Source: a virus
Taxonomy: Duplodnaviria; Caudoviricetes
Virus record (IMG/VR): IMGVR_UViG_3300023174_000293
Coordinates: 1 to 43,173 of that record
Strand: one strand, 5' to 3'
Length of the DNA stretch: 43,173 bases
This document shows positions 2-15,969 of this stretch, piece after piece. Position numbers and translations under genes: made by a program. Position 1 is the stretch's first letter; every line of letters starts with the position of its first letter. The notes under the pieces were generated by a model. The model was not told where the DNA came from, ran no database searches, and saw nothing but the letters and a program-made list of their open reading frames with translations.

Positions 2-55
2 AATATTAAACGCTGGAATACATTTACAAGAGATTGTGAATGTGTTGACGGCTGA
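2..55 (+). CDS. Putative attenuator leader peptide for tRNA block 1, 5' end outside the window (...NIKRWNTFTRDCECVDG*)
   Basis: Open frame AAT ATT AAA CGC TGG AAT ACA TTT ACA AGA GAT TGT GAA TGT GTT GAC GGC TGA. The last codons overlap the antiterminator strand and the codons match block-1 tRNAs. Confidence 0.7.
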   Translation, partial: NIKRWNTFTRDCECVDG

Positions 56-104
56 TATTGTGTTCTGACTTATCTTTTAACTTTGTGAACAATATCAACC
101 GTCA
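46..104 (+). promoter_or_regulatory. Antiterminator hairpin of attenuator 1
   Basis: TGACGGCTGATATTG (46-60) pairs with CAATATCAACCGTCA (90-104) at 14 of 15 positions and sequesters the 5' arm of the terminator. Confidence 0.75.
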
Positions 105-130
105 CCCTAAAAAAGTGACGGTTTTTTGTT
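97..130 (+). terminator. Intrinsic terminator of attenuator 1
   Basis: AACCGTCAC-cctaaaaaa-GTGACGGTT followed by a T-run. Confidence 0.85.
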
Positions 131-5084: not shown

Positions 5085-5681
5085 ATGATTAAATTGGTAT
5101 CTATAATCAAAAACATTATTTTAGAAAATATAAAAAGCACGGAATTTGAACAATGGTTTAGTGGTAGTAAAATTGTAGATAATATGGGAAATCCACTACG
5201 AGTGTATCACGGAACCAATAAAGCCTTTTCAATTTTTAAATTATCACCAGAAGGTGTTCTTGGAAAAGGTATATATTTAACACCGGATCCAGAACGAGCA
5301 AGTGAGTATTCTTATGAATCTGCTTTTGGAGATCGTCGAGGTGAAGGTAACAATGTAATACCACTATATGTTTCTATTAAAAATCCATTGATTGTTCACG
5401 AAGATTCAAAATACAACAATCCATCTGTTGACGCGTTGGTTGCACTTGGAGTTGATCGTGAAAAAGCTGTAAATGTTGTAGATAAAGCATTTGAAGAAAA
5501 AGGAAATTTAACTGGTCAAATATATAAGAAAGCACAAATGCAAGGACACGATGGAATTGTTCTTTATAGAGACAATAAAATTTTTGAAATTGTAGCGTTT
5601 CGTTCAAATCAACTAAAATCAGCGATAACAAATAAAAATTATAGTTTTGATCCTGATATAACCAAAGAAACTTTAAAATAA
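5085..5681 (+). CDS. ADP-ribosyltransferase-like protein (polyvalent-protein ART type)
   Basis: GNPLRVYHGT...GKGIYLT...ASEYS...GHDGIV...EIVAF...QLKS motifs. Confidence 0.7.
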   Translation: MIKLVSIIKNIILENIKSTEFEQWFSGSKIVDNMGNPLRVYHGTNKAFSIFKLSPEGVLGKGIYLTPDPERASEYSYESAFGDRRGEGNNVIPLYVSIKNPLIVHEDSKYNNPSVDALVALGVDREKAVNVVDKAFEEKGNLTGQIYKKAQMQGHDGIVLYRDNKIFEIVAFRSNQLKSAITNKNYSFDPDITKETLK

Positions 5682-6474: not shown

Positions 6475-6486
6475 CGATTTTTTGTG

Positions 6487-6539
6487 TTGACAAGTTCAAC
6501 ATTCTATGTATACTCGTTAGTATATTAGTTCTTTAACAA
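6487..6539 (+). promoter_or_regulatory. Sigma70-like promoter followed by a boxA-like element
   Basis: TTGACA-N16-TATACT, then GTTCTTTAACAA (6528-6539). Confidence 0.65.
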
Positions 6540-6543
6540 TTTA

Positions 6544-6832
6544 AGATAGTGGCGGAACAACCTTCCTTATAGGGGTAACGCACAATGGTGATGAAGAGTC
6601 ATTATTGGTTGGAGTAATAATATGTAGTGTAAGTCTATGGAGGATTGTGGGTCGTACAACCTATAATCCAAGCGTAACGACATCGTAGCTAAATATATAT
6701 GATATATCGTAGGTCGTTGTGGGAAACCAATCCCATCAATTATTAACATAGAGAGTAATTAACTTTATGGATTGTGGATGAATAACATAGCATATTGTGA
6801 AACTTGGAGGTAATCATTAGTCCTTCCTATTT
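6544..6832 (+). ncRNA. Putative ~290-nt structured RNA
   Basis: ORF-free; AGATAG/CTATTT ends; hairpins GGATTGTGGGT/ACCTATAATCC, ATTATT/AATAAT, GTAACGAC/GTCGTTGT. Confidence 0.45.
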
Positions 6833-6841
6833 GTATTTAAT

Positions 6842-6914
6842 GCGGGTCAGATGTAACTAGAGCATGCTCACATTCCAGTGAGTTGGTGAGGTGCGATTCC
6901 TCAGACCTGCTCCA
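6842..6914 (+). tRNA. trnG: Atypical tRNA-Gly(UCC) with a 6-nt anticodon loop and T-loop TGCGATT
   Basis: GCGGGTC/GACCTGC-T-CCA; CTCAC-ATTCCA-GTGAG. Confidence 0.72.
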
Positions 6915-6922
6915 ATTTTAAC

Positions 6923-6997
6923 GGTCCATTAGTCTAGTGGTTATGACACTGCCCTTTCACGGCGGGGACAAGAGTTCGATTCTCTTATGGACTACCA
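6923..6997 (+). tRNA. trnE: tRNA-Glu(UUC)
   Basis: GGTCCAT/ATGGACT-A-CCA; CTGCC-CT-TTC-AC-GGCGG. Confidence 0.93.
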
Positions 6998-7002
6998 TTT
7001 TT

Positions 7003-7060
7003 AGAGTATGGAAGTTCTCTTAAAAAACTTCTTGGTTGCGGGGTTAGCAAATGGTATACT
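7003..7060 (+). ncRNA. Small three-way-junction RNA resembling 1147-1193
   Basis: AGAGTAT/ATACTCT enclosing GAAGTT/AACTTC and TTGC/GCAA hairpins. Confidence 0.4.
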
Positions 7061-7274
7061 CTGTTTGTTGGGTGGATAGAGTATTCAATAGATACACCCA
7101 ACACAATTTTTACGGTTCTTTTGATAATTTTAGTTGGTGGAAAATAGAGTATCAGATTGATGGAACGCTGAAAATCGTACAAACCTGAGAAAAAAATGAT
7201 AATTGTGAGTCAATAAAAAACGCTAGTTCGTTGAAATAAACCTCCGTGTATTATCGAAACCAACACAATTTAAT

Positions 7275-8667: not shown

Positions 8668-9110
8668 GCCACCGTGATGAAATTGGCAGACATAAGGGAC
8701 TCAATGTTGTAATGACAATGCGGGTCCATACAATGGAAACATTGTATGAGTATGGTGTAAATTCGGTGAACGGGTAACAATGACAGATTTCAAAAGAATC
8801 TGCAATATGTAAATATATGTCCCCAACGCCGAGCCAAGCTGTAGAAATACAGAAGGTGTAGAGACTATAATCACCTATCTAAAGTTGTGTAGAACGGATA
8901 GTTTCAACTATCGTAATCACACACAAATATGATAAAGGCATAGTCCAGACCACAAACAAAATTAGTTCGCAAGACGGGTATCAAACTTCTCAATGCTGTT
9001 ATATGGCGAGAATAAGGGTATTTTTTAATTTTGGTAGTGAACACTATAGTGGTAGGTAAAATCCCTCGGCCCATAAAGCCATGCCGGTTCAAGTCCGGCC
9101 GGTGGTACCA
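8668..9110 (+). tRNA. trnL: tRNA-Leu(UAA) split by a group I intron (exons 8668-8701 and 9057-9110)
   Basis: GCCACCG/CGGTGGT-A-CCA; spliced anticodon arm AGGGA-CT|TAA-AA-TCCCT. Confidence 0.85.
8702..9056 (+). mobile_element. Group I intron (IC3-like, 355 nt, no ORF)
   Basis: P1 GGACT/GGTCC with a U-G pair at the 5' splice site; core motifs AAATTCGGTGAA, AACGCCGAGC, GTGTAGAGACTA, AGGCATAGTCC; terminal G at 9056. Confidence 0.88.
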
Positions 9111-11065: not shown

Positions 11066-11998
11066 ATGAATACAAACTCCAAAATATATGTAGCTGGTCA
11101 TAATGGAATGGTGGGATCTGCAATATGGAGATCGTTGATTAAAAAAGGATACACAAATATATCGGGGGTTCGAAGTAACTTTTTGAACTTAATTAATCAA
11201 CATGAAGTTAATTCCTTTTTCGACGTAACAAAACCCGAGTATGTTATTATTGCTGCCGCACATGTTGGTGGAATTGTTGCAAATAGTACATACCCAGCTG
11301 AATTTATATACAACAATCTTCAAATTCAAAATAATATCATTGATGCTTCGTATAGACATGGTGTTAAAAAACTATTGTTTTTAGGAAGTAGTTGTATTTA
11401 TCCCAAGTTAGCAGAACAACCTATTAAAGAAGAATATCTATTGACCGGTCAATTAGAGACTACAAATCAATGGTATGCAATTGCAAAAATTGCAGGAATA
11501 AAAACATGTCAAGCATATCGTGAACAATATGGATGTGATTTTATTAGTGCAATGCCATGTAATTTGTACGGTAACAATGACAATTTTGATCTTAACAGTT
11601 CACATGTATTACCAGCGTTAATTAGAAAGTTTCATGAAGCAAAGATTTACAATAAGCCACAAGTTGTTTGTTGGGGAACCGGTAGTCCACTAAGAGAGTT
11701 TTTGTATGTCGATGATTTGGCCGAAGCATGTGTATTCTTGATGGAAAACTACAGCGAATCTAATCATATCAACGTCGGATATGGCGATGACATTACTATT
11801 AAACAAGCATCTGAGATTGTATGTGATGTTGTAGGATATGAAGGTGAAATTGTTTGGGATACATCAAAACCAGATGGAACTCCACGAAAAGTTATGGATA
11901 GTTCTCGTATCAAAAATATGGGATGGAAGCCAACAACAACATTACGTGACGGATTAGAAAAAACTTACTATTGGTTCAAAAATAATGTACGTTTGTAA
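11066..11998 (+). CDS. fcl: GDP-L-fucose synthase
   Basis: IYVAGHNGMVGSA; AAAHVGGI; FLGSSCIYP; YAIAKIAG; NLYG; GTGSPLREFLYVDDLA; KPDGTPRK. Confidence 0.96.
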   Translation: MNTNSKIYVAGHNGMVGSAIWRSLIKKGYTNISGVRSNFLNLINQHEVNSFFDVTKPEYVIIAAAHVGGIVANSTYPAEFIYNNLQIQNNIIDASYRHGVKKLLFLGSSCIYPKLAEQPIKEEYLLTGQLETTNQWYAIAKIAGIKTCQAYREQYGCDFISAMPCNLYGNNDNFDLNSSHVLPALIRKFHEAKIYNKPQVVCWGTGSPLREFLYVDDLAEACVFLMENYSESNHINVGYGDDITIKQASEIVCDVVGYEGEIVWDTSKPDGTPRKVMDSSRIKNMGWKPTTTLRDGLEKTYYWFKNNVRL

Positions 11999-12022
11999 AA
12001 TTTGATGATATGTATTGTCAGA

Positions 12023-12097
12023 ATGAATATTTCATCCGTACAGTCAAGTGTAGCCAATGGACAACCAAGTCCATCACTACTCCCTAGCGCAAGCTAA
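12023..12097 (+). CDS. Putative attenuator leader peptide for tRNA block 2 (MNISSVQSSVANGQPSPSLLPSAS)
   Basis: 24-codon ORF; 20 of 23 non-start codons are S/V/Q/A/G/P/L, exactly the amino acids of block-2 tRNAs; followed by antiterminator and terminator. Confidence 0.75.
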   Translation: MNISSVQSSVANGQPSPSLLPSAS

Positions 12098-12101
12098 ACT
12101 A

Positions 12102-12141
12102 GACTAACGGTAAGAATTGCTTAAATAACAAACCGTTGGTC
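12102..12141 (+). promoter_or_regulatory. Antiterminator hairpin of attenuator 2
   Basis: GACTAACGGT (12102-12111) pairs over 10 bp with ACCGTTGGTC (12132-12141), the 5' arm of the terminator. Confidence 0.75.
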
Positions 12142-12165
12142 CAAAAGGCCAACGGTTTTTTGTTT
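12130..12165 (+). terminator. Intrinsic terminator of attenuator 2
   Basis: AAACCGTTGGTC-caaaa-GGCCAACGGTTT followed by TTTGTTT. Confidence 0.88.
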
Positions 12166-12171
12166 GATAAA

Positions 12172-12204
12172 GTTCATTGACATTTTGAGATTTAGTGTTA
12201 GTAT
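12172..12204 (+). promoter_or_regulatory. boxA-like element overlapping a possible sigma70 promoter
   Basis: GTTCATTGACAT; TTGACA-N16-TAGTAT. Confidence 0.5.
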
Positions 12205-12221
12205 GTATGAACGGTTGAGAT

Positions 12222-12296
12222 GCACGGTTAGCTCAGTGGTAGAGTAGCAGCCTTACACGCTGTTTGTCGGGGGTTCAAATCCCTCACCGTGTACCA
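12222..12296 (+). tRNA. trnV: tRNA-Val(UAC)
   Basis: GCACGGT/ACCGTGT-A-CCA; GCAGC-CT-TAC-AC-GCTGT. Confidence 0.93.
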
Positions 12297-12367
12297 ATTT
12301 TAATACTAAATTTTATATGGAAAATAACGTTGACAAAGATACTCAATACGAGTATGTTAGAAACAAG

Positions 12368-12481
12368 ATGATGACTGAAAATTATCCGTTGTACGCTTAC
12401 TACACAGCAATTCAAACGGTTGCCGATAGTATTCTCCCTAAACCGGAGACTCGGTACTTGGATATTCTTGGTATTGAGTAA
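12368..12481 (+). CDS. 37-aa hypothetical peptide (MMTENYPLYAYYTAIQTVADSILPKPETRYLDILGIE)
   Basis: Hand translation; follows TTGACA-N17-TATGTT at 12330-12358. Confidence 0.4.
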   Translation: MMTENYPLYAYYTAIQTVADSILPKPETRYLDILGIE

Positions 12482-12599
12482 TTGTTGGTATGGGCTTGAA
12501 ACTCTATCTGGTGTGCCCTTAAACACTTGATCGGTCACTGGGTGTTATGCTGAAATACAGAACCCATCTGGCGATAATGACATAAAGTATATAACAATT
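12480..12599 (+). ncRNA. Putative structured RNA
   Basis: AATTGTT/AACAATT ends; GGGC/GCCC and TGGGT/ACCCA internal stems. Confidence 0.4.
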
Positions 12600-12606
12600 T
12601 TTAAAT

Positions 12607-12682
12607 GGGTGGTTAGCTCAGTTGATAGAGCATTTGCTTTACACGCAAAATGTCATAGGTTTAAATCCTATACCACCTACCA
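12607..12682 (+). tRNA. trnV: tRNA-Val(UAC), second copy, with an A19/U56 elbow
   Basis: GGGTGGT/ACCACCT-A-CCA; TTTGC-TT-TAC-AC-GCAAA; D-loop GA, T-loop TTTAAAT. Confidence 0.88.
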
Positions 12683-12689
12683 TTTTAAT

Positions 12690-12774
12690 CGGAGTGTAGT
12701 CCGTAAATAGGGGCGGGCCAGTTTTGGGAACTGGATCGAAAGACCTGTAGGTGCAAGTCCTATCACTCCGACCA
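12690..12774 (+). tRNA. trnP: tRNA-Pro(UGG) with enlarged variable arm, T-loop TGCAAGT
   Basis: CGGAGTG/CACTCCG-A-CCA; CCAGT-TT-TGG-GA-ACTGG. Confidence 0.85.
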
Positions 12775-12838
12775 CTTTTTAATTAGTTTAAATCATAAAA
12801 GTCTGACTTTGAAAAATTTCAATACTATTTATTAATAT

Positions 12839-13771
12839 ATGAATAAAATTGAAAAAGAAATAAGTAGTAATATTGATAGATTTAAGTTAGTTGTAGATGA
12901 AAGCAATGGAACCGGAGACATTTGCCGTAAATATAATTTTTGTGACAATGGTAAATCAAGAAATTTAATAAAAAAATATATTTATGATTTGAATTTAAAT
13001 ACAAATCATTTTGGTTTAAAAAGTCATCCAAAAAAAAAGTATAAGACAATAAATAAAAAATGTCCTAATTGTCAAAAATTATTTGAAACATTAGAAAATC
13101 ATCCTAGAGAAAAGAAAAGTTGCTCTTATAAATGTGCAAATAATTTCTTTAAAAAAGAATACACTGATGAACGGAAAAAACAAATTAGTGAATCTCTTAG
13201 AAAATATTATGAATCAAATGTTGGTAAGCAAACAATTATAGATAAAAAACAAAATATTGTTCTAAAAAAAGAATGTAAATTTTGTGGAGAATTGTTCCAT
13301 CCAAAACAAAATAAAATAAAATATTGTTCCACATCGTGTACAAAAAAATGTCCTGATTATCGTAAAAAACTAAGTGATTCAACTAAACAACGAGTTATAA
13401 ACGGAACTCATAATGGTTGGAATTCAAGAAATATAATTTCATATCCAGAACAATTTTTTATGGGTGTATTAATTAATAACAATATTTCATATCAACATAA
13501 TAAACCCGTTGGAAAGTATTTTATAGATTTTGCTATTGTAGAAAAAAAAATAGCATTAGAGATTGATGGAAAGCAACATCAATATGAAAACAGAAAAAAA
13601 TCTGATGAAATAAAAGATAAGTTTTTAACAGAAAATGGATGGAAAGTTTATAGGATTTCTTGGAAATCAATTAACAATGAACTTGGTAAACTTTATATTA
13701 AAGATGAAATAAATAAATTTTTAGAAGTTTATAACGGGCGTATGGTGAAATGGCAGACACGTGAGTCTTAG
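12839..13771 (+). CDS. DUF559/Vsr-like PD-(D/E)xK endonuclease with Zn fingers
   Basis: CPNC, CSYKC, CKFC; SYPE...YFIDFAI...ALEIDGKQH...DKFLTENGWKVYRISW. Confidence 0.85.
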   Translation: MNKIEKEISSNIDRFKLVVDESNGTGDICRKYNFCDNGKSRNLIKKYIYDLNLNTNHFGLKSHPKKKYKTINKKCPNCQKLFETLENHPREKKSCSYKCANNFFKKEYTDERKKQISESLRKYYESNVGKQTIIDKKQNIVLKKECKFCGELFHPKQNKIKYCSTSCTKKCPDYRKKLSDSTKQRVINGTHNGWNSRNIISYPEQFFMGVLINNNISYQHNKPVGKYFIDFAIVEKKIALEIDGKQHQYENRKKSDEIKDKFLTENGWKVYRISWKSINNELGKLYIKDEINKFLEVYNGRMVKWQTRES

Positions 13772-13819
13772 GAACTCATGGAGAAATCCGTGTAGGTTCA
13801 AGTCCTACTACGCCCACCA
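13736..13819 (+). tRNA. trnL: tRNA-Leu(UAG)
   Basis: GGGCGTA/TACGCCC-A-CCA; TGAGT-CT-TAG-GA-ACTCA. Confidence 0.93.
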
Positions 13820-13828
13820 AATTTGCTA

Positions 13829-13911
13829 GTTTGAACGTAACCACAATACGGTGGACGAGGAGATAGACTCCGCTTAGACTCATAGAGAAATCTATGAAGG
13901 CGGCTTCAAAC
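13829..13911 (+). ncRNA. Putative cloverleaf-like small RNA
   Basis: GTTTGAA/TTCAAAC; CCAC/GTGG; GGAG/CTCC; TCATAG/CTATGA. Confidence 0.45.
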
Positions 13912-13998
13912 GGTAATCAATTTAAACAAGGTAATTAATATTAATAAGTCTGACGTTAGGTATAATGATCTGATATTTATTGACAGAGAAATATACCC

Positions 13999-14409
13999 AT
14001 GTCAAACACTTATTCATACAAAACTTGTAAAGTATGTGGAATTACTAAACGAAGTAACGCGCGTAAAGGGTATTGTAGTAATACTTGTTATGCTGTACAT
14101 CAAAGAAAAATTAAAGTTGATAAATGGTTGAATGGAGAACATGACGGTATGAGAGGAAAGACTTCAACCGCTAAATGGATCAAACAATATTTGATAGAAC
14201 AACGTGGACATCAATGTGAATGTTGTAAAAACACAATGTGGATGAACAAACAAATATTGTTAGAATTGGAACATGTAGATGGTAATTTTAAAAACAACAA
14301 AATAGATAATTTGAAACTTTTGTGTCTTAATTGTCATGGAATGACATCAACATATAGAGCAAAAAATAAAGTTGGAAGACCAAGAGAAAAATATTACAGA
14401 GAACTTTAA
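13999..14409 (+). CDS. HNH endonuclease
   Basis: CECC...LELEHVDGNFKNNKIDNLKLLCLNCH; resembles the C-terminus of 464-1141. Confidence 0.9.
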   Translation: MSNTYSYKTCKVCGITKRSNARKGYCSNTCYAVHQRKIKVDKWLNGEHDGMRGKTSTAKWIKQYLIEQRGHQCECCKNTMWMNKQILLELEHVDGNFKNNKIDNLKLLCLNCHGMTSTYRAKNKVGRPREKYYREL

Positions 14410-14410
14410 C

Positions 14411-14500
14411 GGTAGGATGGCAGAGTGGTTTATTGCATCGCTCTTGAAAAGCGAAGGGGTCTCAAAGCCTCCGGGGGTTCAAATCCCTCTTCTACCGCCA
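14411..14500 (+). tRNA. trnS: tRNA-Ser(UGA)
   Basis: GGTAGGA/TTCTACC-G-CCA; TCGCT-CT-TGA-AA-AGCGA; long variable arm. Confidence 0.93.
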
Positions 14501-14516
14501 TTTTTTGAAAATTCAC

Positions 14517-14606
14517 GGTTGGGTGGCAGAGTGGTCTAATGCAGAGCTTTGCTAAAGCTCCGGGGTTTAAAAGCCCCCGAAGGTTCAAATCCTTCCCCAA
14601 CCGCCA
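14517..14606 (+). tRNA. trnS: tRNA-Ser(GCU)
   Basis: GGTTGGG/CCCAACC-G-CCA; GAGCT-TT-GCT-AA-AGCTC. Confidence 0.93.
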
Positions 14607-14612
14607 CTTTAC

Positions 14613-14688
<76 letters not shown>

Positions 14689-14698
14689 GTTTTACAAC

Positions 14699-14772
14699 GC
14701 GGGTATAGCTCAACGGTAGAGTGCCAGTCTTCCAAACTGGCTATGCGGGTTCGATTCCCGCTACCCGCTCCA
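14699..14772 (+). tRNA. trnG: tRNA-Gly(UCC)
   Basis: GCGGGTA/TACCCGC-T-CCA; CCAGT-CT-TCC-AA-ACTGG. Confidence 0.95.
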
Positions 14773-14780
14773 ATTTTAAT

Positions 14781-14854
14781 TGCCCGATGGTGTAATGGTA
14801 GCACAAGAGACTTTGACTCTCTTTGTATTGGTTCAAATCCAGTTCGGGCAACCA
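14781..14854 (+). tRNA. trnQ: tRNA-Gln(UUG)
   Basis: TGCCCGA/TCGGGCA-A-CCA; AGAGA-CT-TTG-AC-TCTCT. Confidence 0.93.
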
Positions 14855-14863
14855 CTTTATATA

Positions 14864-14963
14864 TGTCGGTTAAGGGTGTAATTTTAGAGAAATTGTAATG
14901 AGTGATCATCAGTTACAGGAGTAAAAACTAGTGATCGAAAGATCCGTTCATCAAACACCGACA
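14864..14963 (+). ncRNA. Putative structured RNA
   Basis: TGTCGGT/ACCGACA ends; TGTAA/TTACA; GATC-gaaa-GATC. Confidence 0.45.
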
Positions 14964-14973
14964 ACAATTTATT

Positions 14974-15050
14974 CGGGGTGTATTGTCAATTAGGAGACGG
15001 CCTGATCTGGAGTCAGGAAGCTGCAGGTGCAAGTCCTGTCACCCCGACCA
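14974..15050 (+). tRNA. trnP: tRNA-Pro(UGG), second copy, with atypical C33 and A37
   Basis: CGGGGTG/CACCCCG-A-CCA (Pro identity); CCTGA-TC-TGG-AG-TCAGG; T-loop TGCAAGT. Confidence 0.78.
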
Positions 15051-15058
15051 TTTTATAT

Positions 15059-15144
15059 GCTAGCTGCAATCTGGTGAGAACGTTGGCTTAGGATTGAACC
15101 TAAGTTATCAGCGGTGATGGGTTCGATTCCCATAGTTTGCGCCG
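15059..15144 (+). ncRNA. tRNA-like RNA with no D-stem and an extended anticodon-position arm
   Basis: GCTAGCT/AGTTTGC; unpaired D-region GCAATCTGGTGAGAA; CGTTG..GCTTAGG/CCTAAGT..CAGCG; T-arm ATGGG-TTCGATT-CCCAT; ends GCCG. Confidence 0.6.
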
Positions 15145-15151
15145 TTTTTAT

Positions 15152-15265
15152 ACCAGACAATGGTAGAGGTTTGAACTTGGCTAGGTCCGAAACAATAACC
15201 AACGGCTGTGTTCGGCTAATAATCTGTGGGTTAAATATGCCCATAAAACCGTCAAGGTGTCTGGG
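15152..15265 (+). ncRNA. Putative structured RNA
   Basis: CCAGACA/TGTCTGG ends; ACGG/CCGT; TGGGT/GCCCA. Confidence 0.4.
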
Positions 15266-15280
15266 ATAAATTTTTGCTTT

Positions 15281-15404
15281 TGATCGTTAGTGATATAGAA
15301 TTATAAAACATCTCCGGTTTGTGGAGAAGAAGGGTGAAGTTGACGCTAGATAGACGTTGGAACAATAGTGAAATCCTCGTATATTCGCACCCCACGGTCA
15401 TCCA
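15281..15404 (+). ncRNA. 124-nt expanded tRNA-like RNA ending in TCCA
   Basis: TGATCGT/ACGGTCA-T-CCA; TCTCC-ggtttgt-GGAGA arm; GGGTG/CACCC T-stem holding a ~50-nt insert. Confidence 0.62.
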
Positions 15405-15453
15405 ATTTTTGTTTTTTGATTTGATTTGATTTATACTATGTATTTGTAGATAT

Positions 15454-15528
15454 GGGCTGTTAGTGATAGTGGTAGCACAGGAGCTTTGCAAGCTTTAGGG
15501 AAGAGTTCGATTCTCTTACGGTCCACCA
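15454..15528 (+). tRNA. trnA: tRNA-Ala(UGC), second copy
   Basis: GGGCTGT/ACGGTCC-A-CCA; GGAGC-TT-TGC-AA-GCTTT. Confidence 0.9.
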
Positions 15529-15542
15529 AATTTTAACTATAG

Positions 15543-15854
15543 ATGAAACAGAATAACCTAAATGAAAAGTATAGAGGTGTAAACAATTTCACACCTGATG
15601 AATTGGTTTATTATCTCAAAAAGGGTTATAATGCTTCGGATCTGGCAAAACTGTTTAAAACAACAACTAATGTAATTGAAAAAGCGTTAGTTGAGTATGA
15701 AATTGATCCACCTCACGTAACTACTAAAGAGGTGTTAGATTTATATAGAGCTGGTACGCCAACAGCTTTGATTGCTGATAAGTTAAATATTACTCCATTA
15801 GCTGTATTTTACAAACTAGTAAAAAGCAGAAAAGTAAGTTTTAAGAAAAAATAA
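15543..15854 (+). CDS. Tandem helix-turn-helix protein
   Basis: GYNASDLAKLFKTT and GTPTALIADKLNIT HTH-like repeats. Confidence 0.65.
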   Translation: MKQNNLNEKYRGVNNFTPDELVYYLKKGYNASDLAKLFKTTTNVIEKALVEYEIDPPHVTTKEVLDLYRAGTPTALIADKLNITPLAVFYKLVKSRKVSFKKK

Positions 15855-15895
15855 AGTTTATCGTAAAACAAATACTATATATTGTTAACCAGAGC

Positions 15896-15969
15896 GCGGG
15901 TATGATGTAGTGGTAGCCTACAACCTTGCCAAGGTCGATGTGAGGGTTCGATTCCCTCTACCCGCTCCA
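15896..15969 (+). tRNA. trnG: tRNA-Gly(GCC)
   Basis: GCGGGTA/TACCCGC-T-CCA; ACC-TT-GCC-AA-GGT. Confidence 0.9.

Follow-up and report, generated by a model that had tools for sequence, protein, structure and literature searches.

The stretch of DNA considered here, i.e., the window, spans 43,173 nucleotides and corresponds to the full length of the 43-kb record IMGVR_UViG_3300023174_000293, which belongs to a large, uncultured and myovirus-like freshwater phage. Its gene content includes baseplate wedge, PhoH, Hsp20, glycosyltransferase and many HNH-type genes, together with 22 tRNA genes (default stringency). Among its relatives, one is represented by a 296-kb record rated complete (G001), and the closest cultured phages are distant, with 34-40% in the baseplate wedge. 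As for the host, 10 out of 80 matches of the PurM-like protein of a relative (L118) reach at least 54% identity and all 10 are from Verrucomicrobiota; this is the sole hint, and an indirect one. Ahead of one of the tRNA arrays of the window, namely block 2, lies a compact unit with the following features:

11066-11998, plus strand: fcl-like gene for an NAD-dependent epimerase/reductase, ending 24 nt before the leader
12009-12016, plus strand: promoter-like motif TATGTATT of the family TA[TC][ATG]TAT[TA], 6 nt before the ATG
ATG 12023 to TAA 12097, plus strand: leader ORF 2, 24 aa (MNISSVQSSVANGQPSPSLLPSAS), with 20 of its 23 non-start codons for Val, Pro, Leu, Ser, Ala, Gly or Gln
12102-12111, plus strand: 5' strand of the antiterminator (GACTAACGGT), pairing with 12132-12141 over 10 bp, including one G-U (-13.1 kcal/mol)
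12130-12165, plus strand: intrinsic terminator, with 5' arm 12130-12141, loop 12142-12146, 3' arm 12147-12158 and a U tract to 12165
12177-12204, plus strand: sigma70-like promoter (TTGACA-16-TG-TAGTAT), just after the terminator
12222-15969, plus strand: tRNA block 2, with Val-UAC (two), Pro-UGG (two), Leu-UAG, Ser-UGA, Ser-GCU, Ala-UGC (two), Gly-UCC, Gly-GCC and Gln-UUG

Relatives of this unit were gathered via (i) the fcl gene, (ii) an upstream outer-membrane-like gene, (iii) terminator patterns, and (iv) a conserved RNA motif beside tRNA-Val. The general terminator-pattern scan covered about half of the collection and gave 121 loci, tRNAs being found downstream in 11 out of 125 matches, and the metagenome scan with the RNA motif covered 35 out of 64 parts. 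Altogether, 101 starts of block 2 were considered, duplicate fetches included, where automatic recognition gave a leader in 84 and inspection by eye added 6; of the rest, 10 were truncated and one (L371) had none. The 84 automatic leaders amount to 36 distinct sequences and 21 distinct peptides; L002, L003, and L004 lay outside the leader filter, of which L002 was added by hand to the analyses of terminator type, gene context and codon substitution. A further candidate, L094, was rejected as a leader locus, being a chance pattern match inside a coding region. When positions 12000-12800 were compared by blastn with 50,697 phage records, 137 records matched, none of them with at least 80% query coverage, and among the 25 matches listed from this search of cultured phages only tRNA parts were concerned. 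In Flavobacterium phage immuto (34% in the baseplate wedge), no leader was found before the three Rfam tRNA matches.

From the letters alone, an earlier note had read positions 12008-12183 as an attenuator whose leader encodes the seven amino acids of block 2. Recounting from the translated ORF gives the same 20 out of 23 codons, with all seven amino acids present, and the chance of about 1 in 4000 put forward at p = 0.5 is confirmed (binomial P = 2.4e-4), decreasing to 4.7e-6 when the background of the window itself (0.40) is used. As the set of seven is fixed by the tRNA block, it was not picked post hoc. Such a composition was reached by none of 20,000 mononucleotide shuffles, none of 5,000 dinucleotide shuffles and none of the 9,625 windows of 23 residues in 32 real ORFs, and the leader ranks first for these amino acids among the 430 small ORFs of the window. 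The alternative frames across it hold only 11/22 and 5/22 codons for the seven.

The same bias is found in the relatives, where codons for the seven amino acids make up 317/387 in frame vs. 152/366 and 122/366 in the other frames (82% vs. 42% and 33%), e.g., in the peptides MKNQSVQSSVVAGQSSPALLPSLS, MRNSLQPSLSVAGQPSLT, MNLISQPSQASQLPSGS, and MLNTVSQPSSSQVPQGT. In 16 distinct leaders of 17 codons (codons 5-16), non-synonymous codon states stay within the seven in 21/25 cases vs. 28/76 for single-base neighbours, as judged from a gap-free column comparison of related sequences in which events are not independent. The peptide sequence itself drifts, with 25 non-synonymous vs. 11 synonymous states, and its length varies from 17 to 24 aa, some peptides being longer. 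Such a pattern of substitution is what selection on codon class, and not on peptide function, would predict. N-terminal extensions of 18 to about 50 ordinary codons are present in L245, L254, L368, L387, and L389, where the S/Q/P-rich tail and the switch are kept; in the first four, the S/Q/P/A/L/V tail is in frame and ends at the same stop. Besides, the dipeptides Q-P and S-Q are recurrent in leader-2 peptides.

Regarding the tRNA genes behind the leader, they are interleaved with endonuclease-like genes and serve only the seven amino acids in all 30 complete blocks of relatives. In the window, 16 out of the 20 sensing codons are readable by the phage's own tRNAs via standard pairing, the other four (TCC, GCC, CTC, and CCT) requiring extended U34 wobble. 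The match between codons and block stands at the level of the class, but not one-to-one, since 6 out of 21 leader-2 peptides lack Val even though tRNA-Val heads the block. The Leu codons are CTA and CTC, as the earlier note had it, and its proposal of a distinction between UUR and CUN readers gained support across phages: from codon 5 on, UUR codons occur in 4 of the 6 blocks with Leu-CAA/UAA vs. 1 of the 24 without, an association that involves about two lineages and hence inflates the Fisher P of 0.003.

Several other elements were observed in block 2. Between the two Val genes, positions 12492-12585 form a conserved structured RNA of two stems, with two-sided change in 4 out of 21 pairs (11 sequences) and no Rfam match. 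Every relative used carries it as a marker of block 2, and L392 has a similar element ahead of block 1. The same interval holds a small conserved ORF (MENNVDKDTQ..., 12317-12481), which in L016 comes directly after the downstream promoter. Further on, a tRNA-Pro(UGG) with C at position 33 is detected only at relaxed score (14974-15050) and is followed by a degenerate tRNA-like element (15057-15143) present in relatives too.

Right behind the leader, the two predicted hairpins are mutually exclusive. The terminator stem comprises 12 bp (-17.6 kcal/mol in the predicted fold), and an antiterminator strand lies close behind the stop, as claimed earlier, 12102 being the fifth base after it; its proposed 10-bp pairing with the 5' arm of the terminator was recovered by computation (12102-12111 with 12132-12141) and competes with the terminator. 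In 34 out of 36 distinct sequences, the antiterminator reaches -12.5 to -21.8 kcal/mol, the exceptions being L301 (-5.9) and L368 (-9.0), and it is stronger than in at least 190 out of 200 shuffles in 31/36. With the RNA masked as far as 12 nt beyond the stop, this value drops to between 0 and -2.6 in 36/36. Three terminator sequence types could be discriminated, each with a matching antiterminator (mean duplex of -12.8 to -16.4 within types and -3.5 to -9.1 across), the own terminator arm being the best partner in 32/33; this two-sided change is seen only between types, which were hand-aligned on the terminator arm. In the group resembling the window, pairing survives one-sided changes at three pairs, no pair changed on both sides and 59/60 cells are paired, a proportion for which the within-pair shuffle control (500/500) is uninformative. 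In the loop of the antiterminator, TTGC (12118-12121 in the window) is kept in 32/36 sequences, mostly as TTTGCT, and is a possible pause or factor site; at this position, L229 and L263 carry TGCTCTTAAAGA, which resembles boxA.

How a ribosome may set this switch was approached by folding the RNA along a ribosome walk, a computation that assumes a 15-nt footprint from the A site. The probability of antiterminator pairing is 0.99 with the ribosome at codons 1-22, then 0.79, 0.44, and 0.0 at codons 23-25, and it is also 0.99 with no ribosome on the leader. In the window, the antiterminator is the less stable of the two folds, so that read-through would need kinetic trapping. A protector (1:2) hairpin, suggested by the full-length fold, does not exceed synonymous or codon-order shuffles in most relatives: the window is equalled by 20/200 synonymous shuffles, and L001, with the same peptide, by 15/300 codon-order shuffles. 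With the protector hairpin unsupported, read-through is predicted for a leader that is not translated, in contrast to the trp attenuator.

Transcription of the unit appears to involve two types of promoter. The promoter-like motif that the earlier note saw just before the ATG is indeed present (ATATGTATT, 12008-12016), and its family precedes 18/39 gene starts vs. 16/934 other ATGs in the window. It is found before the structural genes at 31-43 kb, where TTGAC promoters are absent, all plus-strand TTGAC promoters of the window lying before 24 kb. It also occurs 12 nt before the tRNA-Gly gene at 15896, which favours a promoter over a translation signal. In the leaders of relatives, the motif stands 5-9 nt before the ATG and a Shine-Dalgarno (SD) sequence is absent in 37/37, the motif having formed part of the leader finder, so that its presence in all 37 is by construction. 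The leader mRNA is thus predicted to be leaderless or nearly so, and the motif is likely the late-type promoter of the phage, judging from gene position only; no phage sigma factor (PF04542) was found in the four records searched.

The sigma70-like promoter noted downstream of the terminator was found at 12177-12204 and is kept in 37/37 distinct sequences; it would provide an entry into block 2 independent of the attenuator, bypassing the switch. The letters of the boxA-like GTTCATTGACAT reported after the terminator are present, but only their TTGAC core, i.e., the -35 hexamer, is kept, the full context occurring in 4/37. Antitermination via Nus factors at a boxA was accordingly set aside, with no conserved boxA sequence and the context of the window in just those 4/37. 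As for transcripts, a continuous span from the leader across the terminator into tRNA-Val is found in RNA-library contigs of near relatives in 4 out of 5 runs from two studies (12034-12488, 12058-12577, 12059-12517, and 11935-12692); only small shares of the RNA runs (0.07-0.19) were present as contigs, and those of run X6 do not cover the leader. Since a transcript from the downstream promoter cannot overlap the terminated leader RNA, the bridging contigs fit read-through, of which they are a weak sign as contigs reveal no strand and may stem from DNA. Elsewhere in the window, a non-coding stretch behind a TTGACA promoter (6480-7260) is matched by very deep RNA-library contigs (6619-6723) in two studies, marking an abundant RNA.

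The other tRNA array of the window, namely block 1, is headed by a partner of this unit:

2-127, plus strand: attenuator 1, cut by the window start, with the leader end NIKRWNTFTRDCECVDG followed by a stop at 53-55
46-61 with 89-104, plus strand: antiterminator of attenuator 1
97-127, plus strand: terminator of attenuator 1

The full leader 1 is available in L002 (MNHLYTNIKRWNTFTRDCECVDG), and 24 loci were collected (14 distinct sequences, 11 peptides). Leader 1 contains neither Ser nor Pro in 261 residues of the 11 peptides, and, Met aside, the 12 other amino acids are all present in 7/11; most of its Val, Gly and Ala codons sit at the 3' end, within or beside its own antiterminator strand. 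When both leaders occur on one locus (n = 7), together they cover 20 amino acids in four cases, 19 in two and 17 in one. A fine tracking of block 1 by leader 1 was not found, Gln-CUG occurring in L158 and L161 with no Gln codon, and Ala-GGC in L115 with no Ala codon. No leader was found before the third tRNA cluster of the complete relative G001. In a more distant phage (L167/G004), a leader with its own antiterminator (MMTTKHNFNNRKDCQGGNG) precedes a Gln-Cys-Ile-Lys-Arg-Thr block. Block 1 of the window further contains a gene with an ART-PolyVal ADP-ribosyltransferase domain (5085-5681), and that of L016/G003 a tRNA with the anticodon CUA (amber reader). A tRNA-Leu(UAA) at 8668-9110 is split by an intron of 355 nt whose position is group I-like, RNA-library contigs covering 8704-9056 within this region.

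Taken together, conserved frame, composition, hairpin covariation and the partner leader support the attenuator reading of 12008-12183, and the unit is real, conserved and very probably functional. In its favoured form, to which we give a probability of about 0.8, block 2 would be subject to ribosome-mediated transcription attenuation serving feedback on tRNA supply, where translation of the leader, coupling, termination and purpose are all deduced. A ribosome reaching the stop would cover the antiterminator strand and let the terminator form, while slow reading of the Ser, Pro, Gln, Ala, Val, Leu or Gly codons would favour the antiterminator and hence transcription into the matching tRNA genes. 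The signal is likely a loss of usable tRNA, because extra tRNA does not cure an amino-acid shortage, and it may be triggered by decay of host tRNAs or by anticodon nucleases. Once made, the tRNAs of the phage would themselves decode the leader and thereby shut the switch, i.e., a negative feedback. The downstream promoter being present in 37/37, block 2 does not depend on read-through; the bypass could allow unregulated expression early on, and the late-type promoter, being attenuated, a top-up on demand. A broader proposal, which seems to us conceivable but slightly short of an even bet, is that of a two-channel tRNA homeostat, where the code is split between two attenuators, each sensing and refilling one tRNA class, with leader codons co-evolving with anticodons; in this way, the phage would detect tRNAs destroyed by the host and supply substitutes when needed, which would amount to counter-defence through sensing.

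Other explanations account for part of these observations. The switch might simply report the arrival of any ribosome at the stop, and hence ribosome loss or a global slowdown, with the codon match being secondary: the antiterminator is predicted even on ribosome-free RNA (0.99) and a protector hairpin lacks support, which means that read-through would follow from any block; moreover, Val is often absent from leader 2 and leader 1 ignores small changes of its block. Such a general sensor of translation, which is not mutually exclusive with codon-specific attenuation, nonetheless needs neither substitutions confined to the seven amino acids, nor a partition of the code by two leaders in step with their blocks, nor UUR codons following Leu-CAA/UAA genes, and is considered improbable as the whole explanation. 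It is more doubtful still that codon speed would be replaced as the driver by arrest induced by a nascent peptide or a ligand, of which TnaC is an example, or by protein- or tRNA-mediated antitermination of the T-box type. For these, the TTGC loop motif (32/36) could bind a factor or mark a pause, and the recurring Q-P and S-Q dipeptides would fit, but the peptides differ in sequence and in length (17-24 aa, with some longer), and no Rfam family matched, whether T-box or leader, even at E up to 10.

We regard as least credible of all that the hairpin is a constitutive terminator of the upstream gene next to an unrelated small peptide, block 2 being transcribed only from the sigma70-like promoter. 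The window has no other terminator between fcl and the hairpin, so that transcription from fcl runs into the switch as well; the downstream promoter occurs throughout (37/37), and L371 has just such a layout, the terminator of an outer-membrane-like gene being directly followed by the sigma70-like promoter with no leader 2. Yet the upstream gene varies, fcl being found there in 6/37 distinct sequences, and a separate hairpin or T-run stands between the upstream gene and the leader in 6/37. Nor does a constitutive terminator need an antiterminator that co-varies with it, or an unrelated peptide a composition that is conserved while its sequence is not. The earlier note had allowed for a mere fcl terminator with a non-conserved ORF; instead, ORF, frame, composition and antiterminator are kept behind differing upstream genes.

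Compared with known systems, the favoured codon-specific attenuation of block 2 resembles in its working mode the trp, his, leu and thr attenuators as well as those of ilvGMEDA, ilvBN and pheA, at least as presented in the available part of PMC1183508. Four out of six features of an attenuator were found by computation, namely (i) a leader frame under selection, (ii) cognate codons, (iii) mutually exclusive terminator and antiterminator, and (iv) masking of the antiterminator by a stop-bound ribosome. Covariance models of Rfam gave no match at the gathering threshold or at E up to 10, either for the leader families (Trp, His, Leu, Thr, and Phe) or for the T-box riboswitch. In E. coli, the pheST attenuator likewise places a gene of the translation machinery under a leader peptide, but it differs from the phage unit in being cellular, in sensing a single amino acid and in targeting a protein-coding gene, i.e., a synthetase. 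Leader 2 of the phage departs from attenuators of amino-acid operons in that it covers seven amino acids together, the others falling to a partner leader, lacks a supported I:II protector/pause hairpin, and combines a predicted leaderless mRNA with a bypass promoter right behind the terminator. Whereas those operons encode biosynthetic enzymes, in what is described in PMC1183508, the phage leader precedes tRNA genes. In the portions of the sources available, the closest functional analogue is the trn operon of Anabaena PCC 7120, a long tRNA array switched on under impaired translation (PMC8421152, PMC10272220), and the likeness lies in the induction of a tRNA array by translational stress; its control relies on the repressor TrcR acting on promoter repeats and is neither codon-class specific nor of phage origin. 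Neither 'attenuat' nor 'leader' occurs as a word in PMC8421152. No attenuator of tRNA genes was found in the literature searched, including the available part of PMC5179076, a search whose scope left out most subscription journals.

In the accessible parts of PMC12409363 and PMC10264068, tRNAs are described as common targets of bacterial immunity and phage tRNAs as able to rescue infection. The case of T5 tRNAs against PARIS/AriB offers a likely reason to sense and refill depleted tRNAs, and this work, in those same parts, addresses what phage tRNAs do rather than how their transcription is regulated (PMC12409363, PMC10264068). The question of why phages carry tRNA arrays is presented there as open for more than 50 years (PMC10264068). 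As read here, the leader unit would bring attenuation to the tRNA arrays of a phage, two leaders sharing the code between them. Textbook attenuation would thereby be extended from enzymes of amino-acid metabolism to tRNA genes, where the product itself closes the loop, and with some 150 nt the unit could serve as a compact sensor of the depletion of a tRNA class. If this is true, the leaders name the tRNA classes that are sensed together, and if the switch does gate the matching tRNA genes by codon speed, such phages would have been selected to respond to tRNA shortage during infection.
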